From the IMG/VR virus record IMGVR_UViG_3300034150_000093, positions 1 through 38,216 of that record: DNA of 38,216 nt; one strand, 5' to 3'. How positions within the stretch are numbered: position 1 is the stretch's first letter; every line of letters begins with the position of its first letter. Made by a program: the position numbers and the translations under genes. Positions 720 to 27,219 of this stretch are shown in pieces. Under the pieces are notes generated by a model. It searched no databases. It had not been told where the DNA came from and saw only the letters and a program-made list of their open reading frames with translations. The DNA is from a virus. Its lineage: Duplodnaviria > Caudoviricetes.

Positions 720-2219
720 TCAGTATCCCACTCCCTGCGCGACCTGCTGGTAAGTTTCGCCTGATGCCGCAAGGGTGGTGTATGTGGTTCCGAGAACCGA
801 AGCGGCCAAAACCTCATATGTGGCATCCCCGCCTCCGATGCCGTTTCCACCGACCTGATTCTCAGATGTATCCCGTAGCGGGTACGCCAAACGGAACGGA
901 AGAGACCAAGTGCGCGCCGTGATGGTTCCATCGACCCCGATGATCTGATCGTCGGTGTCGAAAACTCCGATCCAGTCGGTGCCGTACGGTCGGCCGAAAT
1001 CGTATACCAAAGGCAGAGACAGTAGCAGAGGGCGGCCTGAACTCAGAATTCCTTCGACAGCGTCTTCGTCGTTGAATGTTTTTGTTACCAGAAGCATCGT
1101 GTCGCCGTACCGTTTGCGGGTCTGCGCCACCACCTGAATTCTTTGAGCGTCGATAATGTCGAACATCCCCGACGAATTCGAGTAATCCCGGCCACGGAAA
1201 CCACCGAAAACGACCTGATCAACGTCTTCTTCGCAGAAGTCGAACAGGTCGCCGGAGAAGTCGATGCGAACATTTCGCGAAGGCTCCAAAGGGTCCCTGA
1301 GCCATCCGTCACCAGCCGAATTCAAAGTGACCGTATTCGAAGTAGCCTCAACGATCAAGGAACAGTTCGATTTCAGTTCATAAAAAATTGGGGTATTGAA
1401 CGGTGCCTCATTGTCGTAGAACGTGGCGATGGCGGTAGGTGCGGCAGCGGAAGGTTCCTCTGTGCTACCTGGACTTCCACGCACCTCGGATCGGACACCG
1501 TCAGCTGTGACACGGTACAAACGGAAAGGGTTCCCGAGAGCGGCCACGAAATTGTCATCGACACACACGACCGGTAAACCGTTCGTGTTGCCGGTTGTCA
1601 GAAACTGCCGGGTTCCCGAACGTGTACCAGTCGTCAAGTCGCCGTCAACACCAGTGACGATCCAGTCAGGTTGGGTGACAGTGGAACGCCACGCACGTGC
1701 CCGCAACGTGGTGCCGCAGCATTGTGCTTCAATGTTCCAGGTGGCACCAGCCGCATGAACCTGACCAAGTGTGACAGCGGCGACCACAGTTGATGTGACA
1801 CCGAGAACAATTTTCCGCAACAACAACGTTGCCACACCGCCGGGAGCCAACGACAGCGTTGCCAAATAAGTGTTCGACGTGTCCGTGAACCGGAACATGA
1901 CCTCTTCGACAATCGGTTGTGTCAAAGCCGCTACCGGAACAGTCACCGTCCGCATCACCTGCATGTCGGCGTCGACAGCCGTGGCGATGTCGGTGTGACG
2001 TGGCACGTTGACGGTTCCGTTCGACACCAGACCCTGGGTGCCGTTCACCGAATAGTCGGCTGCCGCACCACCGGTAACCGTCCACAGTTGCCCGGTTGTC
2101 GCGGTACCCCAGTTCGCTGCCACCACACGGGTGAACAGGTCACGAACCTGGGTTGCTTCAACGTCGATCCGAACAGTTCCGGTCGCGTCGTCGTTGGTAG
2201 CCACCAGGGTTGCCATCAC
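720..2219 (-). CDS. Minor tail / distal-tail-like protein with a beta-rich insert
   Basis: 499 aa, directly downstream of the tape measure with overlapping stop/start; T/V/G-rich N-terminal half. Confidence 0.7.
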   Translation of the reverse strand: MMATLVATNDDATGTVRIDVEATQVRDLFTRVVAANWGTATTGQLWTVTGGAAADYSVNGTQGLVSNGTVNVPRHTDIATAVDADMQVMRTVTVPVAALTQPIVEEVMFRFTDTSNTYLATLSLAPGGVATLLLRKIVLGVTSTVVAAVTLGQVHAAGATWNIEAQCCGTTLRARAWRSTVTQPDWIVTGVDGDLTTGTRSGTRQFLTTGNTNGLPVVCVDDNFVAALGNPFRLYRVTADGVRSEVRGSPGSTEEPSAAAPTAIATFYDNEAPFNTPIFYELKSNCSLIVEATSNTVTLNSAGDGWLRDPLEPSRNVRIDFSGDLFDFCEEDVDQVVFGGFRGRDYSNSSGMFDIIDAQRIQVVAQTRKRYGDTMLLVTKTFNDEDAVEGILSSGRPLLLSLPLVYDFGRPYGTDWIGVFDTDDQIIGVDGTITARTWSLPFRLAYPLRDTSENQVGGNGIGGGDATYEVLAASVLGTTYTTLAASGETYQQVAQGVGY

Positions 2220-4168
2220 ACCATCCTCGGTCCTTGAGTCATTGTTCGTGCCGCCTGCTTGTTGACACCTTGAGCAACCCGGAACATACGTGCGTTCAGC
2301 TGCTCATTGCCGATGTACACGGCCACATTGGAACCGCCCATCATCCCCGCCAAAGGTGTCTGCGACAGCAACTTCATCGACCTTGCCGGGTTCGTCAACG
2401 GTAGCACCACCTCCTCCTTGTAGCCTTCACCGACACCGATGATCTGCGGGGAAGAGATGAAACCGCCATCGGCGTAGTGGGGGATGTTGACCGGTTGACC
2501 TGGTGCCCGAACTTTGATCGGAGTTCCGTTCAAGTTGATGAGCGCGTTCCTCGCCAAAATCAGGGCATGTTCGGCGGCATTCGCAGAACCTGCCAGGTTG
2601 TTCAGCTTCGGAGCAGTCGGTGGAATCCCGTTGATCGTGATCAGCAAACCGAAAATGCGGTCAAAGTCGGCGATGTTACCGCCGCGTGCTTTATGTTCCG
2701 CCCGGATACGTTTGATTTCCTTGTTGTAGAAAGTTTGCGCCTGCTCTTCCGTCAACTGGCCAAGCTTCAAACGGTCCTTTGTGTAATCACCCAACTTGTT
2801 GATCTCGTTCTGGATACCGGTGACAAGATCTCGCCCCTTCTCTCCACGAACATCCAACGTCGCAGACTTGTTGTCCTTGTAAACCTGGGTGACCCGGTCA
2901 ATGGACTCTTCGTAGTCGACGTTCGCGGAAATGATGTCGTTGATCAGCTTGTCCTGATCCGACAGCTGCCTGTTCAGTTCCTTGAGAGCTTTCTCCTGAT
3001 TCTTCGTCGCGGCGACAGAACCGCCCAGCGCACCACTGAAATTGTCGAAGTCGCGGACAATCCTGCGCCCCGTCTGCTCCTCATCGAATTCGTGGAAGGC
3101 CGCGAAAATGTTGTCGAAAGTGAAGTCCTCATTCAAAAGCAGAAAACCGGTGAAAGCCGCGCTCAGGTCGAACAAAGCATTCGTGGTATCCCTGACCGCG
3201 TCCAAGACCGGACGCAGAGCCATCCAGGCGTCAATGGACCAGTTGATGAATTCGCCACCGATGTCAACGATGTCGACGAGCGTGTCGAAAAGGTCAGACA
3301 ACGCGATGTCGGCATCCGGGTTTGACAGGATCTCGTCGAAAACATCACCGATCGCCACACCCAGATCGGTGAGTCCGTTGATCAGGGCGAACGTGAAACC
3401 TTCAAAGTCCAAACTTTCCAAGCCGTTGTTCAAACCGGTCAGGACACCTTCGACAAAGTTTATGGTCCCCTCTGTCAGCGGTTCCACAAACTTTGATGTC
3501 GTGTCGAAAATGGACTTGATCGTCGGGAGAATGGACTCCATCCGAAGTTCGATCTCGTCGAGACTGTCAAGAACCACGGGAAGGAAAGCCGACGCGGACG
3601 TGACGAGATCGTCACGCAGATTGTTGAGGAAAGGTGTCCAGCGGTCACGGACCTCATCAAACTGTGTCGACAAAGCTACACCGAGACCTGCGACGCCAAG
3701 GATTGTCGCAGCGGCGAAAGCACCTCCGATGAACGCCCCCGCAGGGACGACAAGCCCGAGAAGGCTTACGCCGATGGCAGCTTTCAACTCGGCGGGCAAA
3801 GCCGAGAAACCGTCTTCGAAGACGGAGACAACACTTCCTAACCAACGTTTGAGGCCGGACGAGAAAGACTGATTCTCTTCGCCCATTCCGTCGCTGAAAC
3901 TTTTACGGAACTTTTTGCTCGCTGACTTGCCGCCGCCAACGCCGACCCGGTCCAATTCTTTTTGAAGATCATCGGCAAGGGCTTTCGTCGACTCTTTGAA
4001 ACCTTCCGACGTGCCTTTGCCGACATTCGACCCGAGCCGCTTACCCAAATCCTGGCTCAGCGTCTTCTCGAACTTGTTCGTCAAAGCCTTCAGCTGAGCG
4101 TCGAGATCTTTGTTGAACCCTTTCAGGTCAGCGCGGACCTGAACATACGCTTCACCGAGCTTCGACAT
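2216..4168 (-). CDS. Tape measure protein
   Basis: N-terminal LGEAYVQVRAD, helical/hydrophobic middle, C-terminal YADGG...GEG..E.VLPL motif typical of tape measures; follows the chaperone pair. Confidence 0.9.
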   Translation of the reverse strand: MSKLGEAYVQVRADLKGFNKDLDAQLKALTNKFEKTLSQDLGKRLGSNVGKGTSEGFKESTKALADDLQKELDRVGVGGGKSASKKFRKSFSDGMGEENQSFSSGLKRWLGSVVSVFEDGFSALPAELKAAIGVSLLGLVVPAGAFIGGAFAAATILGVAGLGVALSTQFDEVRDRWTPFLNNLRDDLVTSASAFLPVVLDSLDEIELRMESILPTIKSIFDTTSKFVEPLTEGTINFVEGVLTGLNNGLESLDFEGFTFALINGLTDLGVAIGDVFDEILSNPDADIALSDLFDTLVDIVDIGGEFINWSIDAWMALRPVLDAVRDTTNALFDLSAAFTGFLLLNEDFTFDNIFAAFHEFDEEQTGRRIVRDFDNFSGALGGSVAATKNQEKALKELNRQLSDQDKLINDIISANVDYEESIDRVTQVYKDNKSATLDVRGEKGRDLVTGIQNEINKLGDYTKDRLKLGQLTEEQAQTFYNKEIKRIRAEHKARGGNIADFDRIFGLLITINGIPPTAPKLNNLAGSANAAEHALILARNALINLNGTPIKVRAPGQPVNIPHYADGGFISSPQIIGVGEGYKEEVVLPLTNPARSMKLLSQTPLAGMMGGSNVAVYIGNEQLNARMFRVAQGVNKQAARTMTQGPRMV

Positions 4169-5669: not shown

Positions 5670-5868
5670 GGCTCACAACTTTCCGCACGACCATAGGAAC
5701 GTCAACACGACCACCGGAACCAGAATCGTCCACATCAGAAACCTCCACAGTAGTTGGAACAACTACTCGAACATACCCGGTACGCAGCAGCGGCGAATCC
5801 CCCGAAAGGAGGACACGCTGACCGGTCCTCAGGTTTCCGACACTTGCGACAACAACAACCTCGATCAT
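5551..5868 (-). CDS. Small hypothetical virion-module protein
   Basis: ATG at 5868 fills the gap after the 5883 stop, but the ORF overlaps the next gene by 119 nt. Confidence 0.4.
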   Translation of the reverse strand: MIEVVVVASVGNLRTGQRVLLSGDSPLLRTGYVRVVVPTTVEVSDVDDSGSGGRVDVPMVVRKVVSRGKSKLGSGSLPEGGTGERVVGSSAADEVESSGNENPGT

Positions 5869-5882
5869 GGTCGGTTCTTCTT

Positions 5883-6413
5883 TCAGCAGCAGCGGGGAAC
5901 ATGGACCTGAATGAGTCCAGTTGTCTGAATACAATTAGAATGTGGCCCGACCGGTGAAATGCTGATCACCTGATACAGGCGACCTTTCGGCAAAGTCTTC
6001 TCCCAGCAGCATATCGCGTTCTTCAACCGCACCATGTCCTCGGCATAATTGGTGGCAGCGGTCGTATGCTGCGCCGGGGTGGCCATCTCTGGCATTCCAC
6101 CAGGAACATAGCAGCGCAGAATACCGACTTCCAACTCTTGCGCCCAACCCGTAGGAAGACAACCGTTGCGCTTCAAAGCCGCATCGGGTTCCGGAAAATT
6201 CGACGAAGGATACGTGGAACCCATACGAACCCAGCCGAGTCCTTCGCAACACAGATCACGGCCGACGATAGGGTCGATATCTTCACTGATCGCCTCACCT
6301 GCACGAAGTGCGAAGTTCTTCGGCTTACCAGACACGCCGACGAATTCAGCTTCCAAGCAGGCCAAAAGACTGTTCGCCATCGTCAAAGCGGGATTCACTG
6401 ACATTACGGCCAC
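5883..6413 (-). CDS. Tail terminator-like protein
   Basis: 176 aa, Cys-rich, LEVGILRC motif; follows the adaptor. Confidence 0.55.
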   Translation of the reverse strand: MAVMSVNPALTMANSLLACLEAEFVGVSGKPKNFALRAGEAISEDIDPIVGRDLCCEGLGWVRMGSTYPSSNFPEPDAALKRNGCLPTGWAQELEVGILRCYVPGGMPEMATPAQHTTAATNYAEDMVRLKNAICCWEKTLPKGRLYQVISISPVGPHSNCIQTTGLIQVHVPRCC

Positions 6414-18261: not shown

Positions 18262-18438
18262 TCATCGGGTGACGGTGTAGCCGACCTTCGAAGCGGCAGA
18301 CCTCATCGCCGCGTACACCTTGTCACGTTCGGCTTTCTCCTGCGCCGACGACATCACCGAAACCACGGTTCCGTCGGGCATCTTCGCGTCATAGGCACCG
18401 CTGACGCTTTTCACCTCATCCGGGCGACCACAACACAT
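18262..18438 (-). CDS. Small protein, 58 aa (MCCGRPDE...)
   Basis: TGATG overlap with the protease stop; ends at the terminator. Confidence 0.6.
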   Translation of the reverse strand: MCCGRPDEVKSVSGAYDAKMPDGTVVSVMSSAQEKAERDKVYAAMRSAASKVGYTVTR

Positions 18439-20498
18439 CACTTGCCCCTCTCGTCGAGCTTCTGTACTGCCTTGTTGAATTTTCGTGCGCGACCCTTCGC
18501 CAACAAACCTGACAGCAGCACATCCAGGTCGTTGACCATCCGGGTCATGTCTTCTTCTGCGGCGTTCAAGTTCTCGTTCGCGACCGCACCGTCAGCTAGA
18601 ACAACACCAGCGGCGGTGATCGAGTTTACCTCGCCAGTTTCCAACGATGCCAGGATCGGGAACCCTGGAACGTTCACGGCCAAAGCGGCAACCAGTTCCA
18701 GGCTTCCGTTGATCAAACGCCAATCCCCGGAAATGGGCGACCGGCGCAGTTCGGCGGCCTGAGCATCCGACAAGTCGGACACCAGAGCGCCAGCTGCCCA
18801 AATGCCGAACCTGTTCTCGCCGACGTTGACGACAGCGGACACGGTGCCGGTGTTGTCGTAGTGGTCCACGGCAGGCTGGTAACGCATCCGTGGACCGGCA
18901 TGACCGGTGCCCTGCGTGATCTTACCGACTTTGATCATGGAACCGTCGGCGGTCAAAACCTGACCATTTTTGAAATACTTATAGTCGGCCATCGTTCGGG
19001 GTGCCATCACACATTCGTTGCCGATACCGGCATGACACACACCGAAAGCGGCGATCAAACCTGCCACCCGACCATCCGGAAACACCGTGAACGGCATCCT
19101 GGCGTTCATCGTAGGCTCAGCGAACCAGGAAGCCGGAGGTGCGACGGGAGCGACTGAAGCTTCCACGGAGTCGTCTCCGTGCATCCTCGACTGGATGCGC
19201 TTCACAACCCCGGCAACCCGGTCCATGTCGGCATCAGGAATGTCGACACCGCCACGGGCACCACCAAGCACAGCGGCAACAGCGTTGACGGCGTGTGGAA
19301 CAATCGTCAACTCACCGTCGATGATGTCAGCGATCGGCAGCTTGTAGGAACCTTTCAACTCCGGCTGTGATGCGTCGAACCACAGGAAAGCTTTCCTGAA
19401 CTTGCCGAAATCGCCGTCTGCCCACGCGAACACCCGCGACTTCGCCGAACCGGAATCCCAGCTCCGATCATCGACGGCGATCGGCATCGAAGACCAGCCG
19501 GAAGAATTCACCGATGCCGTGACCACATCGAAAAAGTCCATGGACCATTCACCTTCCCCAACCGCCGAAGCGGTCACATCATCTCTATCATTTCCGCCAC
19601 GCAACCAAGGCGGAGTTGTGCGAGGGTCCCCGTACGCTTCCCGCAGAACATCATAAATGTCGGTGACGACACCTTTCAACACCAGCTTCTCTTCATCTCC
19701 GACAACACCAGCCAAACCTCCGTGCGCACCGGAAAGGATGGCGGCGGCAGAGAACACGGCATGCGGAATCATGGCCAGTTTTCCGTTGACCACATCAGCG
19801 ATCGGAAGACGGTACGAGTCAACGTTGTTCGCGGGACCTTTCGAGTTTCGCCACAGAAACGCCGAATTGAACTTGTCGACGGAAGGGCCAGCCCATTCTT
19901 TGATCCGCTCCACAGCGGCATCGGCGTTGAATTCGGTTTCCCGACCGGCGACCGGCATCTTCTTCCACGATGAAGAGTTCACCGACGCAGTTACCGTTGC
20001 CAAATTGGTTTCCCCAATGAAGGGGAAATCCATGTGGGCGTCGCCGAAATCTAGACGGACTCGGTCGAATATGACAGGTCCCATCCGATCCGTCAGACCT
20101 GCCATCGTCGACAGGTCGTCGGTATAGGCGACGGTCAGATGTGCCACCCAAGGTCTGTGTTGCGGAAAAATCTTCCCAAAACGATCATCGGCGATTCGGT
20201 GAATCCGGTCAACGCCCGCACCGGAAACTCCGAGAACGACGCAAGGATTCTCACTGTCGGGGTTGAAGAAGTTGACAGAGAAAACACTGCCGTCGACAGG
20301 GGAGAATTCGGAAACCAGTTGCCTGATCGACTCCGCGAAATGCTGCACCTGCGACGGCTCGTACATGTCGGCGTCGCCCAGAAACAGGAGGGTGACGTGA
20401 AGTTCGTCAGCTGGCAAACCTGATTCGACAGCTAGACGCTGAGCGTCTTCGACACGTGGAACCAGTGCGATCATCGCCCCAGTCTGTTCATCGGACAC
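18438..20498 (-). CDS. Fusion: 2H phosphoesterase + two repeated domains + capsid maturation protease
   Basis: HVTL and HLTV 2H motifs in the first ~160 aa; duplicated AFLW...SY.LPIAD...G.L...PHAV...A..L.GA.GG domain; C-terminal CH...HYDNT...SGDWR...LELVAALAVNVPGFP protease region. Confidence 0.8.
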   Translation of the reverse strand: MSDEQTGAMIALVPRVEDAQRLAVESGLPADELHVTLLFLGDADMYEPSQVQHFAESIRQLVSEFSPVDGSVFSVNFFNPDSENPCVVLGVSGAGVDRIHRIADDRFGKIFPQHRPWVAHLTVAYTDDLSTMAGLTDRMGPVIFDRVRLDFGDAHMDFPFIGETNLATVTASVNSSSWKKMPVAGRETEFNADAAVERIKEWAGPSVDKFNSAFLWRNSKGPANNVDSYRLPIADVVNGKLAMIPHAVFSAAAILSGAHGGLAGVVGDEEKLVLKGVVTDIYDVLREAYGDPRTTPPWLRGGNDRDDVTASAVGEGEWSMDFFDVVTASVNSSGWSSMPIAVDDRSWDSGSAKSRVFAWADGDFGKFRKAFLWFDASQPELKGSYKLPIADIIDGELTIVPHAVNAVAAVLGGARGGVDIPDADMDRVAGVVKRIQSRMHGDDSVEASVAPVAPPASWFAEPTMNARMPFTVFPDGRVAGLIAAFGVCHAGIGNECVMAPRTMADYKYFKNGQVLTADGSMIKVGKITQGTGHAGPRMRYQPAVDHYDNTGTVSAVVNVGENRFGIWAAGALVSDLSDAQAAELRRSPISGDWRLINGSLELVAALAVNVPGFPILASLETGEVNSITAAGVVLADGAVANENLNAAEEDMTRMVNDLDVLLSGLLAKGRARKFNKAVQKLDERGK

Positions 20499-21261
20499 GA
20501 CGTGCCTCCGTAAATTTGAGTCTGCACCGGCACGCGATGATATCGGCCGGGAAACCGTTGGGTGCTGCCGGATATCTTAGGGAAGATTTTCCCACACGAA
20601 ACAAAGAATTGACAGGAATTGTGGTGCCGTCGACTTGTCGGTGAGTCGAACGAACACGACTGTCTTCACGGTCTGTCCACGTTTTCAACATCACCTTCCC
20701 GGTGGTCGCCTGGAAACGTTGAACAGCTGACAAACTTCCGGCTTCACCGAACCTTCTCGATTCGGTTTCGGCTATGACAACACTCCGATTCGGCCAATTG
20801 ACAGTGCCGGTGATGCTCAGAATGTTGTTCACACGCGCAGAAATCTGAGCATTCGACTCGCCCCGATCTGTAGCGTCCGCCAAAGCTTTGATGACCATCC
20901 GATAAATTTCGTCGTCGACTTGGACAAGCAGGTTACGGGTCCGAGCCAACTGTTCGACCAGGATCGGGTCAGACGGGTTGAAGGGAATCCTCATACCCAA
21001 CTGGGTAGCTGTTTCTTCCCATCCTCGCCGTGCGGCACGCATCAAGTCGGGAAGAATGAGGTCGACTTCTTTCGCCCACTCCTGATCCAACGCTGACAGC
21101 ATTGTCAAAGACGGCTTCGGTGTGCCGAGAATGGCCGCCCTCGCTTTATCCAGCCACCTGGTCAAAGCCGCCAGAATCAGCGGTGCGGTAGCGGCGATAA
21201 TCGCGGCTATCGCACCTTCCGACAGTCCGGTAGCCGAAGTTTCGCCTTCTGGTTGTGTCAC
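20488..21261 (-). CDS. MuF-like minor head protein
   Basis: K.W....D.RVR.TH...DG...P....F and CRCR motifs; GTG overlaps the portal stop. Confidence 0.85.
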   Translation of the reverse strand: MTQPEGETSATGLSEGAIAAIIAATAPLILAALTRWLDKARAAILGTPKPSLTMLSALDQEWAKEVDLILPDLMRAARRGWEETATQLGMRIPFNPSDPILVEQLARTRNLLVQVDDEIYRMVIKALADATDRGESNAQISARVNNILSITGTVNWPNRSVVIAETESRRFGEAGSLSAVQRFQATTGKVMLKTWTDREDSRVRSTHRQVDGTTIPVNSLFRVGKSSLRYPAAPNGFPADIIACRCRLKFTEARRVR

Positions 21262-24071
21262 CGGATTCCTCGCTCGTCCAGGAACGCCGCCAAAAGTCCG
21301 CGACTGTGGACCACTTCCCGAACCAGCAAGGAAGCGGTGTACGTCTGAAGATGCGGAACGATTCCGTCGACATCCACATCCAAACCTTCGAATGAGTCTT
21401 CGGCGGTCGCCCACGCCGACGCCAACAACACGTTCGCGTGATCATGATCGTTCACTTTGATCCGGGTGTGCAGAACGGTCGGCGACACATCTCGGAACAC
21501 CGTCTTGTACGGTGCGGTGCGCAGTTTTCGACCAGCGACCGCCAAAGCCGCCAAAACGAGTGCGTTGGCGGCGGACACGACAGCAGACGGCTGCTCGGTC
21601 ATTGACGCGATCAGCTTAGAAGGCTGTGTCGGTGGTTCACCGATGGTCTTCTTCAATACCGTCCGGTCGGGAACCGGCGGTGGTGCGGCTCCAGGCTTAT
21701 CGAGGTCGCCAGGAAGGTCGGCTACCGCTGGAAGGAAGTTTGGAATGTCCAGGCCCAAGAATTCGCGGACACCTTCGGACTGCAACAAAGTCGGGTCCCG
21801 TTCGACGACCGCCCACATGTGACGTCGGTCGATTTCGTCTTGGCCAGGTGCTGCGGCATCGTTGAAGTTTCCAGCACGACGAACTTCTTCAGCCGAAATC
21901 AGTTCAGGACTCGTCTGGTACATGTTCAACGTGTCGACGAGTTTGTTCGCCGAGTTCGTCAACGGTGCCAAGTCGAAACTGAACGTGAACTTTGTCGGGT
22001 CCCGTCCGATAAGTTTCAAAGCCCTGTACAGGTAGGCGGTATTCAGGGCACCGCACACTCGGTTGAAACCGGGTGCGATCGTTTTGGTGGTGAATTCTTC
22101 GGTGCCCCACCACGCCGAGTTTCCGGTGAAGTACACTTTGCCTTCGTGTCGAGCAAGCCAGGTACGGTTTTCGGTGCTCGGACACCAGATCAAACCGGTG
22201 TGGGTCGCCCACTCCTTCTCGCATCCTCGCGCGGAGAAAGTGGTACGCGCGGTAGACACTCGTAGCCAGTGAAGCAGTTCGGTTCCGTAGCCGGTCTGCT
22301 GGTTGCGGATTCCGCGCGTGACTTTGAGACCGGCAATGATCGCCGCCTGCTCCAAAGCATTGAGGCGTTCCGGGTGAAGCTGGTAGAACATGTATCCGAA
22401 TTTGACCCGCACCCCATCCCCGATTTCGATCATGGACTCCAGGAGGAGTTTGGCCTGACTGAACGTCAGATCGTTGACGAAATCCCTGCTGATCGCCTTA
22501 TGGTCCTCGGTGTGCGCCAGGATATCTTGGGACTTGTACGTTCCGAGAACGAAAGCGACACCAGTTACGGTGCGGGTCGGGTGCACGTATTCAGCGAAGC
22601 CTTCCCGCCCAAAAACGTTGGTGAGGATGCGTCGCAGCTCGACGATTTCCCGCTCGTCAAATTTGGCGATACGGATATACGAAGTTCCGGATTTGCGGCG
22701 CAGAACAGTTCCGTCGCTGGTGAATGCCGCGATCAGGCGAACGAAGTCATCACTGAACTTGGCCTGCTCGGGAACATTCACACAGGGTGCGGCAACCTGA
22801 ATTGAGTCCTGGTTTCCGAAACCTTCTCCGGAGGTTGTCCATCCACGCGCAATGCCCGCCGTGATGATGGGCCAACGGTGCCCGGTGGTAGACAGGGACG
22901 AATGTGAAGCGGACTTCATGGACAGCATCGGCTCGTCGACAACGTCGGCGCGGTAGATGTTGTCGACTGGCTGCCACTGAGATGCGCCGGTTTCGTGGTC
23001 AAGCGTCAAAACGATGTCGCCAACGTTTAGCTGGTCCTGGGTGATCCATCCGCGATCCCGAGTGAAGATTTCCGTCTTGTCCGTTTTACACCAATGATTC
23101 ATGCCTTGCATAGCCGTGGAAGACAGTTGACCTGCGGGGACGTTCAAACCCCTGGCCATGTCTTCGATGAGTTCCCGGCGGTAGTCCATGGCCTTGTCGG
23201 ACAGTGGGGTGTCGAACCGGATCGGCTGGTCTTTCATCGCCTTGATCGATTCGACGGGCGCTTCGAAGATGATCGGTGCGATCTGTGCCGCTGTTCCGTA
23301 ACCGGAAATATTCGACGTCATCGCTTCGAAAATCAGCTGGGCGACTCCTGGCGCACCGGCCGGGACTCCGTTGTCGGCATCACCGGCGAACTTCAAATCG
23401 TCCGGTAGAGGATACAAGCAGCCGTTGGCGATTCGTGAGTTCAGTTCGGCGGACATGAACATTCGCAGCTTCTGCAGCTGGTTGAGTGTGATCAGCAAGG
23501 ATCGGGTGGCACTGTCGGCGAGAAGTGGCCGTGCCGGGTGCGGAGTCCAAATTCTCATGATCACATCGGTGGCCGGATTCAGGGTTTCCCACACCCCGGC
23601 ACCGAAGTCGACCTTGACCTTCCCTGCCCACTTTCGGACATACTGCGGGGCGACACACGTCCATTCATCTCCGGTGAACGTTCCGGAGCGTCCGATCAGA
23701 TACGTTTCACCGGCAACAGTGAATGAGCAGCCGATAGAACGCAGGACGTCGGCGCGCATCATCGGGCCGCCGACAGCTTTCGACGCGATAGCCTGAACTT
23801 CAGGATCGTCGATCACTTCGCCTTGAACAGCCCCGTTGTCGTCTACGTGGTTGACTGTCAACCGGACCAGGGAGTACGCGGAACCGACGTAGTCTCCGGC
23901 ATAGGACAGTTCACCGTTCGAGTCGTAGAATTCCCAAGCTTCCCGCTGCCAAGTTTCGTCGGTGTACCGGTGCATAGGGAACTGAGCTTCCGCCACGGTG
24001 ATCCGGGTGGCGGAAGCCACAATTGCCGAAGGTGCGACAACTGCCACTTCGGTGTTCTTTTTGAAAGCCAT
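21258..24071 (-). CDS. Portal protein containing an intein
   Basis: WQREAW.FY...GEL, RIW.PHP motifs; NHW/SAW motif restored after splicing; mature length 613 aa. Confidence 0.85.
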   Translation of the reverse strand: MAFKKNTEVAVVAPSAIVASATRITVAEAQFPMHRYTDETWQREAWEFYDSNGELSYAGDYVGSAYSLVRLTVNHVDDNGAVQGEVIDDPEVQAIASKAVGGPMMRADVLRSIGCSFTVAGETYLIGRSGTFTGDEWTCVAPQYVRKWAGKVKVDFGAGVWETLNPATDVIMRIWTPHPARPLLADSATRSLLITLNQLQKLRMFMSAELNSRIANGCLYPLPDDLKFAGDADNGVPAGAPGVAQLIFEAMTSNISGYGTAAQIAPIIFEAPVESIKAMKDQPIRFDTPLSDKAMDYRRELIEDMARGLNVPAGQLSSTAMQGMNHWCKTDKTEIFTRDRGWITQDQLNVGDIVLTLDHETGASQWQPVDNIYRADVVDEPMLSMKSASHSSLSTTGHRWPIITAGIARGWTTSGEGFGNQDSIQVAAPCVNVPEQAKFSDDFVRLIAAFTSDGTVLRRKSGTSYIRIAKFDEREIVELRRILTNVFGREGFAEYVHPTRTVTGVAFVLGTYKSQDILAHTEDHKAISRDFVNDLTFSQAKLLLESMIEIGDGVRVKFGYMFYQLHPERLNALEQAAIIAGLKVTRGIRNQQTGYGTELLHWLRVSTARTTFSARGCEKEWATHTGLIWCPSTENRTWLARHEGKVYFTGNSAWWGTEEFTTKTIAPGFNRVCGALNTAYLYRALKLIGRDPTKFTFSFDLAPLTNSANKLVDTLNMYQTSPELISAEEVRRAGNFNDAAAPGQDEIDRRHMWAVVERDPTLLQSEGVREFLGLDIPNFLPAVADLPGDLDKPGAAPPPVPDRTVLKKTIGEPPTQPSKLIASMTEQPSAVVSAANALVLAALAVAGRKLRTAPYKTVFRDVSPTVLHTRIKVNDHDHANVLLASAWATAEDSFEGLDVDVDGIVPHLQTYTASLLVREVVHSRGLLAAFLDERGIR
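22119..23090 (-). mobile_element. Intein (324 aa) with an in-frame LAGLIDADG-type endonuclease
   Basis: Starts CKTDKTEIFTRDRGW; block B TTGH; LIAAFTSDG and ESMIEIGDG motifs; ends FTGN/S. Confidence 0.9.
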
Positions 24072-24443: not shown

Positions 24444-26678
24444 TCATAATCCAGCCACCTGAATACGCTGCGGGGAAAAGAATCTGACGGAGCGACGCTC
24501 ACCGGCCATCAGGTGTCGGCAGGCATGCACAAGCGCATCCAAGCGGTCTGGCGACTCTTTCGAAGATGTCGGGTCCCAAGCCACCATCTCATCTTCGAGC
24601 AACTCGAACCGACTCAAATGGTGAACGCGACGCTGCTCATAACGGAGAGCAACCGGTTCGGCTCGAAGCTTTTTACCGTGGTTTGAGTGGACCGTTTTGA
24701 TGGGCGGCGTCGTATGCTTCGGGAAGAACCCTTCCTCGATCATCTCCTTGTAGGTGTCGGTGAGAACCTTGACCAGCCACTGCTTTCCAAGGTTATCTTC
24801 CACCACGAGGGTGTCGGCGTTGTATCTGGCGAAGACGGTCCATGCATGACGGGCTGCTTCACCTCCGGAAAGCCGAACAGATGCGTCCTCGTGGACATAC
24901 ATGTGATCGTCGGTTCCGCGCGAGACGACGACGACGCCCATGAGGTCGCCGTCCTCAGCCCCGGTCAGGCAGGGGTCGACGCCTACGACTCGGTGCGAAA
25001 TGGTATCAGGTGCGGACTCTCGGCGAGCTTCGTTGATCCACATCTGATTGAAGAGGGGGCCTTCCATGTCGTCGAGAAGTTCGCCATCGATTTCCTGGCG
25101 ACCGATGGAAGTTCCGTCGTATTCCCTTTTGATCTCGGCGATGAAGTCTGCGGACAGGTTGGCGGCATTGTCGTAGGTTGATCCTCGAATAATCGAGACG
25201 AAGCCGTCTGTACGCTTGGACCACTCTTTGAGCAGTTTGATGGGCTTCGGGGTGGTCGTGACGAATGCTCGCGGCCTGTCGCCTGGAATGGATGCGCGAA
25301 GGGCTGGATAGATACCTTCCTTCCAAACAATGTCCGGGTTATCCCATTTTACGGGCTCATCACAGTTGTGGATCAAGATGCCTCCGGTGCCAGCACAGAA
25401 TTCGCTAGCACCGGAGACGGTAAGGTCGAACACATCAGTTGGCTGGTCGACCTTCTCGACGCGCAGCGCGACGGTCGGCCTGATCGATACGCTGGGCTTC
25501 TCGACGGCAGTCCGGCCCACACCACTTGGCCCGCATTCCGATAGAGAAATAGGGTTCTCCGCACTGCGCGCAGACAACACGCTTCGGCTCTCGAACTTCC
25601 CAGAATTTGATGAGCTTCTGCCGAGACTTCTCGCCTCGGCGAGTGGATTCGAGCCATCCCGGAAGTCCTCGCTCTTGTCGAGTGCGTTCCGCATGATCGG
25701 CACTGCTGAGCAATTCGAAGTTTTCGAGTCGCTGATCCCAGGTTTTCCTATTGACGTGGTGGATCTCGTGGCCGTCCGGGATGGGTCCATTTTCAGCGAT
25801 CCACATGCATCGGTGCAGCAGTGATCCGTCTCGACAGTAGTGATATCCCTTCTTCTTGTTGTAGTACCACCGCTCGTTGTCCCACTCGTAGTAAGCAGGG
25901 GCTTCGCTGGGAATTGCGGACTCAGGCATGAGTACAGGATATCATGTGGCTTGATATCGGAAGCCTGGACCCACCCGTAGCTGGTGAGAATTAGGTGCTC
26001 TGCGGTAACTTCCAAACTTCCTGATTCCGTGACAAGGCGTACGACACCGACGTTAGTCCTCGTCAAGTTGGAGCGCGAGACAGTCGCCCACCCCTTTCGC
26101 GTGACCACTTCGTCTCCGACGACGACATCCTCCACGGGAACTTCCCCACGAAGAGTCTGAATCACCTGACCTCGCGCTACACACCAGACGTCGGCCAAGT
26201 TCAGCCCACGAGTGGCATCTGGGGACGCGCCGGTAAAGTGGATTTTTGCCCCGGTTTCCAGCATGACGATGCGGGGCTTCGGTGAACGGACGTATTCGTA
26301 GTCCACATCCAGGCGATACCCCCGACGTTCAAGGACGCGAAGGATACCTGAGGGGCCTTCGATACACGTGGTTCGAGTGTCGGACAGGTTGTATGCCAGA
26401 ACACACCTTTCCGTGGGGAAGCCTGAGCTGTCGTAAGGGTATTCAAGTGTGCGTTCAACGATCCATTCAGCGCCTGCTTTAGTTTTCCCGAAACCTCTTC
26501 CGGACATCATTAAATGTACAGTCCAGTCCCCTTTGGGCGGTACCTGCTCAGGTCGTTGAGTAAACCACCACTCGTCCCGCGCCATCTGAATGATCATCTC
26601 CGGGTCGAGAGACGCCAGGATCAGTTCCCTCTCCTCCGGGTCCATCAGCTTCATCTTCTCTTTCAGGCTCATCCCCAT
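24444..26678 (-). CDS. terL: Terminase large subunit containing an intein
   Basis: Walker A GRGFGKT; Walker B VWCDE restored by splicing; TTTP; GVDP and SPDRLDA nuclease motifs; mature length 471 aa. Confidence 0.92.
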   Translation of the reverse strand: MGMSLKEKMKLMDPEERELILASLDPEMIIQMARDEWWFTQRPEQVPPKGDWTVHLMMSGRGFGKTKAGAEWIVERTLEYPYDSSGFPTERCVLAYNLSDTRTTCIEGPSGILRVLERRGYRLDVDYEYVRSPKPRIVMLETGAKIHFTGASPDATRGLNLADVWCVARGQVIQTLRGEVPVEDVVVGDEVVTRKGWATVSRSNLTRTNVGVVRLVTESGSLEVTAEHLILTSYGWVQASDIKPHDILYSCLSPQFPAKPLLTTSGTTSGGTTTRRRDITTVETDHCCTDACGSLKMDPSRTATRSTTSIGKPGISDSKTSNCSAVPIMRNALDKSEDFRDGSNPLAEARSLGRSSSNSGKFESRSVLSARSAENPISLSECGPSGVGRTAVEKPSVSIRPTVALRVEKVDQPTDVFDLTVSGASEFCAGTGGILIHNCDEPVKWDNPDIVWKEGIYPALRASIPGDRPRAFVTTTPKPIKLLKEWSKRTDGFVSIIRGSTYDNAANLSADFIAEIKREYDGTSIGRQEIDGELLDDMEGPLFNQMWINEARRESAPDTISHRVVGVDPCLTGAEDGDLMGVVVVSRGTDDHMYVHEDASVRLSGGEAARHAWTVFARYNADTLVVEDNLGKQWLVKVLTDTYKEMIEEGFFPKHTTPPIKTVHSNHGKKLRAEPVALRYEQRRVHHLSRFELLEDEMVAWDPTSSKESPDRLDALVHACRHLMAGERRSVRFFSPQRIQVAGL
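25365..26183 (-). mobile_element. Intein (273 aa) in the terminase Walker B motif
   Basis: Block A CVARGQVIQT, block B TAEH, block F VFDLTV, block G IHN/C. Confidence 0.92.
25435..25929 (-). CDS. HNH homing endonuclease in an alternative frame inside the intein
   Basis: LHR..W...NGPIP.G.EIHH.N....D.RLENF......H plus C-terminal CAQC...CGPDC; TATCCT-N6-ATG upstream. Confidence 0.85.
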   Translation of the reverse strand: MPESAIPSEAPAYYEWDNERWYYNKKKGYHYCRDGSLLHRCMWIAENGPIPDGHEIHHVNRKTWDQRLENFELLSSADHAERTRQERGLPGWLESTRRGEKSRQKLIKFWEVREPKRVVCAQCGEPYFSIGMRAKWCGPDCRREAQRIDQADRRAARREGRPAN

Positions 26679-26717: not shown

Positions 26718-26747
26718 TTGCCATCACATGTGCGTAAGTGATAGTGT
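26718..26747 (+). promoter_or_regulatory. Sigma70-type promoter for the RNA cluster
   Basis: TTGCCA-N18-TAGTGT. Confidence 0.55.
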
Positions 26748-26801
26748 GTAACTCTAGGAAGAGGAGCTCCCAGCTAGGAGTAGCCTCCTCTCCCCGGTCA
26801 C

Positions 26802-26905
26802 GTGTGCGAGTTGTACCTCAGGTCGGTAGAGGACGGTAAGCCTAGTAGTAATGTCGTGAGACAGAGGACCCGCAGCCGGTGGTTCAAATCCATCCGCTCG
26901 TACAC
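26802..26905 (+). ncRNA. tRNA-like RNA with an expanded, non-canonical anticodon arm
   Basis: D arm CCTC-AGGTCGGTA-GAGG, T arm GGTGG-TTCAAAT-CCATC, long acceptor-like stem; no 7-nt anticodon loop. Confidence 0.65.
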
Positions 26906-26909
26906 GCAA

Positions 26910-26990
26910 GCCCCTGTGGCGGAATGGCAGACGCCGTTGATTCAAGATCAACTATCTTCGGATGTGCGAGTTCGAATCTCGCCAGGGGTA
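26910..26990 (+). tRNA. tRNA-Leu(CAA)
   Basis: Acceptor GCCCCTG/CAGGGGT-A, D loop GGAATGGCAGAC, anticodon arm GTTGA-TTCAAGA-TCAAC, long variable arm, GTTCGAATC; CCA not encoded. Confidence 0.92.
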
Positions 26991-27012
26991 CGAAAAGGAG
27001 AAATGGAAACGA

Positions 27013-27219
27013 ATGCGTAGACTTCAAGTGCCGGGAACAGACTTGATCGTCGTCGATGAAGGCAGTGAGTGGTGGATTTACCGAAACCAAGACGGCAAGG
27101 TGATTCTTTTCGACAGCGGCGTCGCCCGCACCCGTTTCGGAATGAAGTTCGCTGTTCTTCGCCGAATCGCCCCGCTCATGTTCAAAGACGAACACCAGAC
27201 CCATGCCACGACTTCTTGA
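27013..27219 (+). CDS. Hypothetical protein
   Basis: ATG 27013 after the tRNA; overlaps the methyltransferase start. Confidence 0.5.
   Translation: MRRLQVPGTDLIVVDEGSEWWIYRNQDGKVILFDSGVARTRFGMKFAVLRRIAPLMFKDEHQTHATTS

Follow-up and report, generated by a model that had tools for sequence, protein, structure and literature searches.

The window, by which we mean the whole stretch of DNA analysed here (38,216 nt; IMGVR_UViG_3300034150_000093, Caudoviricetes, a linear virus record that is 65% complete), encodes an RNA with a tRNA frame (26806-26902) in which a 39-nt insert stands where the anticodon arm belongs. Our preferred, tentative interpretation is that this RNA is a maintained non-decoding tRNA mimic, whose likely role would be that of a decoy for host enzymes binding the acceptor/elbow half of tRNA. 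It is a singleton in sequence, yet it is part of a recurring and partly covarying class of RNAs in its phage family. The locus is composed of the following elements:

24444..26678, minus strand: terL with an intein, the divergent neighbour of the window RNA
26718..26747, plus strand: predicted promoter, divergent from terL (-35 TTGCCA at 26718-26723, 18 nt, -10 TAGTGT at 26742-26747)
26757..26794, plus strand: leader hairpin, present in the minimum free energy (MFE) structure (z -0.9, within chance)
26801..26813, plus strand: 5' strand of the acceptor; the canonical part (26806-26813) contains one bulged T, and 26801-26805 are paired to 26902-26906
26814..26833, plus strand: U8-A9, D arm and A26 (C10-G25 stem, A14, G15, G18 G19, A21)
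26834..26872, plus strand: insert replacing the anticodon arm, 39 nt, with a firm GNRA hairpin (26852-26863) and two weak flanking helices
26873..26877, plus strand: variable loop of 5 nt, in which C48 matches G15 (Levitt pair)
26878..26894, plus strand: T arm of 5 bp (GGTGG/CCATC, one G.U) with the loop TTCAAAT
26895..26906, plus strand: 3' strand of the acceptor (26895-26901) and discriminator, A26902 or, in a 9-bp register, A26904
26910..26991, plus strand: canonical tRNA-Leu(CAA), 52 bits
27013..28607, plus strand: downstream genes of a predicted shared operon (68-aa ORF, C5 DNA-methylase-like gene, thyX)

All 12 scored tRNA core features are present in the window RNA; several of them are required by our scanner, and U8, A21 and the 15-48 pair lie outside its requirements. 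The acceptor (26806-26813/26895-26901) has 7 bp, including two G.U pairs, with one bulged T, and five additional pairs lengthen it as far as 26801/26906, with pair probabilities of 0.82-1.0 over 26802-26811. The D stem CCTC/GAGG (26816-26832) closes a 9-nt loop with GG; its C10-G25 pair was found in only two of the 132 canonical type I tRNAs that could be parsed from 303 ARAGORN genes in the collected loci, and the exact D stem in none of them. The distance from the D arm to the T arm is 45 nt, versus 22-23 nt in canonical type I tRNAs, position 33 is a G, and the 5-bp anticodon stem and 7-nt U33 loop are absent. The D arm, the T arm, the bulged and extended acceptor and the 4-nt gap to tRNA-Leu(CAA) are all located where the original prediction, made by reading the sequence without database searches, had placed them. 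Its description of the insert stands as far as the replacement of the arm and the TGTC-GTGA-GACA hairpin are concerned, but the insert is 39 rather than about 37 nt long, and the two additional helices it proposed (CGG/CCG and CCT/AGG) are weak: they pair in the isolated arm, but with probabilities below 0.15 in the full-length ensemble, which leaves the hairpin (0.85-0.91) as the sole well-supported helix of the three. The insert can be described as a purine-rich internal loop with a GNRA hairpin.

The MFE structure is the cloverleaf, both for the window RNA alone and for the whole predicted transcript of leader, RNA and tRNA. The folding energy itself is unexceptional (z = -1.12 for the whole RNA), and the insert folds no better than its shuffled versions (z = +0.15). 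The elbow scanner reported two matches in the window, the RNA in question and tRNA-Leu, whereas 100 third-order Markov copies of the window, scanned on both strands, yielded two matches at a score of at least 16 and one at 17 or above, 17 being the score of the window RNA; in 1.42 Mb of shuffled loci, no matches were returned by a previous form of the scanner. This confirms that the frame is not a product of chance. Assembly error is excluded as well, because records from four other runs (X2, X3, X5 and X9) are identical to the window RNA over the parts they cover, although three 2020 sediment runs among them may represent one campaign; records from two more runs (X6 and X7) do not cover the RNA itself. 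Two changes in the RNA are seen in a variant record, X8 (151 nt at a depth of 5): one turns G.U into A-U at pair 1-72 if the partner, which lies outside the record, is the same, and the other affects the variable D-loop position 16; both are tolerated by the fold. ARAGORN and Rfam, suggested from the outset as a check, made no call for the RNA (Rfam at E <= 10), and the output of ARAGORN at a lowered threshold was noise. A 72-aa ORF that overlaps the RNA (26802-27020) reads on through tRNA-Leu and was considered spurious.

A promoter scan returned a single site, versus 0.3 expected, which it read with the -10 element at 26740-26745. Among the regions of close relatives, window included, 18 of 59 have the same motif at most 160 nt from the start of terL, compared with 5 of 308 control windows; in the window, the RNA comes first behind it. 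The neighbouring tRNA-Leu(CAA) is likely co-transcribed with the window RNA and matches the heavy use of TTG in the phage genes, where, across 12 genes of the window at 57% GC, this codon accounts for 159 of the 509 Leu codons. The loop of this tRNA carries U32 and G37. The minus strand of the window contains a tailed-phage morphogenesis block with terL, which encodes a Terminase_6-type protein, at its end, and the head and tail genes resemble those of mycobacteriophage cluster B-type phages. Uncultured relatives of terL number in the thousands, with a top identity of 83-84% (P0001/P0002); identity to cultured phages, mostly those of Gordonia, Microbacterium and Arthrobacter, is below 40%, and in the genome collection the top matches among those listed are from Streptomyces, Actinoplanes and Micromonospora (35-38%). 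From these relatives in cultured actinophages and actinobacterial genomes we infer that the host is probably actinobacterial.

Among the matches listed for terL, 121 related contigs have at least 400 nt upstream of the gene, and these reduce to 91 non-redundant regions, window included. A tRNA frame is present in 20 of them; the remaining 71, many of which are shortened by contig ends, have none. Once two mis-parsed rows (L141:63 and L141:1079) had been dropped, we counted 10 long-armed frames, with 38-112 nt between the D and T arms, in eight of the 91 regions (the window and seven others), i.e. in eight of the 20 that hold any tRNA frame, and zero on the terL strand. Without the window, nine long-armed frames with a dead anticodon remain in seven of the 90 listed related regions. 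Positions 15 and 48 match in all 10 long-armed frames (G-C in three, A-U in seven). Behind the promoter the content of the site varies from phage to phage, with tRNA arrays, Y-RNA-like RNAs accompanied by TROVE genes, or protein genes; long- and short-armed frames take the first or an early position there. The same arrays contain tRNA frames in which the anticodon loop is short or odd, with 4, 5, 6 or 8 nt:

L111 4228-4297, minus strand: odd-loop frame
L005 ~5800-5870, minus strand: odd-loop frame
L087, L092, L141, L326, L329 and L331: further odd-loop frames

Since such short or odd-loop frames occur too, the feature common to these RNAs is a top half that is kept and an anticodon that is dead, rather than the long arm as such.

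Four of the long-armed frames form a family:

L005 4955-5041, minus strand: family member
L004 662-748, minus strand: family member
L083 4949-5035, minus strand: family member
L011 4966-5056, minus strand: family member

In the alignment of these RNAs 95% of the cells are paired, and 14 of the 27 pairs have changed on both sides, including six of the 11 pairs within the insert. The covariation exceeds that of 500 out of 500 shuffles and of all slid controls, in a model-fitted alignment of only four related sequences and with statistics that ignore their kinship. The insert of this family has the layout 4 bp - bulge - 4 bp - bulge - hairpin, and the family has been conserved in phages that share 55-69% identity with the window in the C-part of terL; its core pattern was found in five viral stretches from three lineages, all of them terL relatives. 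A covariance model of the family (R1) gives its members 90-100 bits by construction, 31-46 bits to the four non-family long-armed frames listed (two in L011 and one each in L111 and L141; L099 was not listed), 31.5 bits to the tRNA-Leu of the window, and 22 bits to the window RNA, whose membership in the family is ruled out by a score below that of the ordinary tRNA. In the three core lineages a DUF7275/DUF7277 gene, whose product we take to have an N-terminal nucleotidyltransferase-like motif, lies 20 nt to ~1.1 kb downstream of the RNA; tblastn found this protein neither in the window nor in any other collected locus. A general coupling of the gene to the RNA family was rejected, as the RNA is present at none of the four DUF7275 loci of cultured phages. 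Immediately (2-3 nt) before the family RNA of L004, the closest readable relative of the window, we observed a larger tRNA-like element (~750-920, minus strand) with a T arm and acceptor, an altered D arm and a middle part of ~80 nt, which is not homologous to the window RNA.

For the window RNA itself homologues were sought in several ways. A blastn search of GenBank phages returned tRNA matches only, an exact 20-mer had no match in viral contigs, and blastn against 160 terL loci, a search of the genome collection, model R1 applied to 100 sources, and alignment with the leader of the closest readable relative all revealed no homologue; the leader hairpin likewise had no homologue in that alignment. 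A pattern combining C10-G25 with a long arm had 38 viral matches (L283-L320), none homologous to the window RNA, and a pattern based on the internal loop of the insert had nine, all unrelated. An 8-mer common to the window RNA and an RNA of an unrelated phage (L295) was taken as chance. The 38 matches show the rare CCTC/GAGG D stem together with a long anticodon arm, which the pattern itself forced, in at least five unrelated families, most of them beside real tRNAs. The insert also has no exact match or complement of at least 9 nt elsewhere in the window, where an antisense target might lie. The original prediction had named as its refutation the lack of both homologues with compensatory changes and a stable transcript; the first of these is what the searches returned, and covariation is not demonstrable for the window RNA because a homologue of its insert was not found.

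What argues for maintenance of this particular copy is the state of its frame. Compared with the nearest of the 132 canonical frames, 10 of 39 positions differ, all of them in stems, and all 16 frame pairs nevertheless form (three as G.U); the 10-25 pair has changed on both sides with pairing kept. The earlier suggestion of a maintained tRNA mimic is supported at the level of the class, given the nine further frames in seven of 90 regions and the covariation in the four-member family, and to a moderate degree for this copy, given its complete core and the 10-25 swap. Stem changes in the four-member family may, on the other hand, have been inherited from different parent tRNAs, and the window RNA is the most irregular among the 10 long-armed frames, being the only one with an acceptor bulge and the only one with a non-Watson-Crick pair in the T stem; it also has five extra acceptor pairs, versus 0-1 in the nine others. 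The alternative that we take most seriously, although we consider it rather doubtful, is that the RNA is a decaying pseudogene of a tRNA or once-functional mimic, broken by an insertion and drifting, but too near its origin to have lost the core. Such decay would agree with the lack of homologues in the searches, the weak fold and weak insert, the bulge and G.U pairs and the absence of an Rfam call at E <= 10; it is harder to reconcile with frame pairs and core bases that are intact despite 10 differences in the stems, with the recurrence of dead-anticodon frames in relatives, one family of which is conserved, and with the structure-neutral character of both changes in the variant (a single record).

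It is also possible, but in our opinion unlikely, that the RNA is a natural tRNA scaffold, in which the frame ensures processing and stability and the actual work, the binding of a protein or RNA, falls to the insert. The engineered tRNA scaffold described in PMC3753655 shares this design: the acceptor, D and T arms are kept and the anticodon stem-loop serves as the insertion site, although in the window the RNA is natural and its acceptor is bulged and extended. In the four-member family the conserved and covarying insert, together with the DUF7275 gene nearby in three core lineages, points in the same direction, yet the family RNA is missing from all four cultured-phage DUF7275 loci, inserts across the phage family differ in length and sequence, some arms are too short to hold a cargo, and the insert of the window RNA is weakly folded, unique and without an exact match or complement in the window.

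We regard it as very unlikely that the RNA is an interrupted, intron-containing tRNA that is spliced to a working one, as the original prediction had considered. In viral contigs, a long anticodon arm often turns out to be a genuine intron of tRNA-Tyr, and the phage encodes a 2H/LigT-like domain; this domain is, however, fused to the capsid maturation protease (18438-20498, minus strand), where it could by analogy act as a virion-borne anti-signalling enzyme. No contiguous excision from the window RNA yields a stem of 4-5 bp and a 7-nt loop with U33 and R37, which rules out a simple intron tRNA; the 5-bp version was obtained in none of the 11 other rows, and one row allowed 4-bp versions. Moreover, position 33 is a G, no bulge-helix-bulge was seen by eye, and the insert is too short for a group I or II intron and has no Rfam match. 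Finally, a packaging-related RNA analogous to phi29 pRNA, suggested by the divergent orientation relative to terL, is extremely improbable, as the phi29-type terminase differs from the Terminase_6 type, a pRNA would be expected in all phages sharing the motor while 71 of the 91 listed regions (many of them short) contain no tRNA frame, and the site is a promoter followed by variable content, being occupied in relatives by tRNA arrays, TROVE genes or other ORFs.

The non-decoding mimic that we favour would act as follows. The RNA would be transcribed early along with tRNA-Leu, excised by the host's RNase P together with a 3' nuclease, and provided with CCA by the host, giving a product of ~100 nt. 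CCA would have to be added because it is not encoded, as in 28 of the 29 frames listed (among their trailers, one starts with ACCA and 11 with ACG). Charging identity depends on elements such as G3.U70, a long variable arm or G-1/C73; with none of these and no anticodon, the RNA would presumably stay uncharged and out of the ribosome, so that the phage could make much of it without miscoding. In the most speculative step, it would compete for defence enzymes that bind the acceptor end or elbow, such as toxSAS CCA pyrophosphokinases and nucleotidyltransferase toxins, and meanwhile the real tRNA-Leu would keep the TTG-rich phage genes translated. A stable product is plausible, since PMC3753655 also reports that E. 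coli processes tRNA bodies whose anticodon arm has been replaced and that these are stable. According to PMC11559606, toxSAS, among which there are prophage defences of actinophages, recognize the CCA end and the first five pairs of the acceptor; this would fit a decoy made of the top half. It counts against this reading that the window RNA has just two of the four acceptor determinants of FaRel2. The PARIS nuclease AriB has been modelled as gripping the anticodon loop (PMC12409363), so that the window RNA would be a poor lure for enzymes of this kind; with the loop they need missing, the decoy role suits acceptor-end enzymes better than anticodon nucleases. The extended acceptor is a difficulty for this reading: sequestered leaders block RNase P (PMC7897497), and the five extra pairs, by burying the leader and the 3' end, could do the same and hide the CCA end that a decoy needs. 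The trailer ACGCAA, which starts at 26904, follows three other frames too and would give a 9-bp acceptor; together with the extra pairs it suggests that processing may differ from that of a normal tRNA.

The window RNA appears to belong conceptually with T4 rnaC/rnaD and with YrlA, although the main features of each differ. rnaC and rnaD (species 1 and 2 RNAs) are small RNAs of the phage tRNA region, to which PMC9697503 and PMC3014915 assign no function, and like the window RNA they are non-decoding tRNA-like RNAs in a phage tRNA cluster. The computed fold of rnaC includes a closing stem, a T arm and an arm that has a 6-nt loop and does not decode, but a long hairpin replaces the D arm, whereas in the window RNA the D arm is canonical and the anticodon arm is replaced. 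A 12/13-nt match between window positions 26836-26848 and rnaC nt 25-37 (E 0.036, post hoc) recurs unchanged in three of four homologues of rnaC and is missing from the most divergent one, EnC15; we rejected homology, as the match is probably due to chance. YrlA (RF02553), as outlined in PMC4201824, is permuted, ends at the anticodon position and has a long Ro60-binding stem, whereas in the window RNA the order is that of a normal tRNA, the GNCGAA motif is absent and Rfam gave no match. YrlA-like RNAs with TROVE genes occupy the equivalent site in relatives of the phage; no TROVE/Ro60 gene was found in the 65%-complete window record. We also observed permuted YrlA-like tRNA frames at the terL-divergent site in L323 (~2100-2500, minus strand; a weak match of 25 bits versus a cut-off of 69), L005 (~5700-5800, minus strand), L086 and L132, and TROVE/Ro60 genes in L323, L086 and L132.

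The T5 tRNAs active against PARIS and retrons (PMC12409363 and 10.1101/2023.03.15.532788) provide a precedent for RNAs of a tRNA region directed against tRNA-targeting defence; they are working replacements for the host's tRNAs, whereas the window RNA, which does not decode, could only compete. Allo-tRNAs and tRNA-Sec (PMC7609411) share with it a non-canonical cloverleaf and a lengthened acceptor, and the same paper reports that some allo-tRNA-like polycistrons are not aminoacylated; they keep, however, the anticodon arm and a long variable arm, where the window RNA has a 5-nt variable loop and a replaced arm, and RF01852 (tRNA-Sec) gave no match. A tmRNA was rejected: the window RNA has G3-C70, a D stem and no ARAGORN or Rfam call, whereas tmRNA has G3.U70, a tag ORF and no D stem. 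We found no description of long-armed, anticodon-less tRNA frames of phages in the open-access literature, and in the parts covered of a review of non-canonical tRNAs (PMC7609411) the terms "phage" and "extended anticodon" are absent. A narrow type I pattern matched ~2,400 viral stretches, of which 120 were inspected and proved to be a mix of intron-containing tRNA-Tyr, tRNA-Ile with a long variable arm, tandem tRNAs and many non-canonical long arms; the class would therefore not be rare, though many of those inspected are ordinary tRNAs.

Bacterial defences against phages have tRNA among their main targets, and the answer known from phages is to bring tRNAs of their own as replacements. A decoy that does not decode, if real, would be a second, RNA-only answer. 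A broader and more doubtful possibility is that phages, including a ~55-kb soil and sediment family resembling actinophages, use a strong early promoter to produce widespread and undescribed tRNA bodies with a dead anticodon as an RNA-only counter-defence, in which the top half would soak up toxSAS and nucleotidyltransferase toxins and the replaced arm would ensure exclusion from the ribosome and, in some families, carry a conserved cargo. If this were true, these RNAs would amount to naturally occurring tRNA scaffolds and to a tRNA-based equivalent of RNA anti-CRISPRs, and the decoy role would give a job to the "tRNA-Undet" genes of phages and, by analogy, to T4 rnaC/rnaD. Two such genes are annotated in Gordonia phage ClubL (L430 5877-5966 and 6228-6308), with perfect frames and without a 7-nt anticodon loop; as ClubL is a cultured phage, the question is open to genetics. 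ClubL (L430 ~6000-6220) and Yvonnetastic (L433 ~5930-6165) also have in common an unannotated structured sequence of ~230 nt, which directly precedes the tRNA clusters and whose Yvonnetastic copy has no Rfam match at E <= 1.

Two further genes in the window deserve mention. The terL intein holds an HNH endonuclease ORF (25435-25929, minus strand) in a different frame, and the terL frame stays open. The portal gene (21258-24071, minus strand, 937 aa) has no Pfam match and aligns with its family in two stretches, a pattern suggesting that it likely carries an intein as well.
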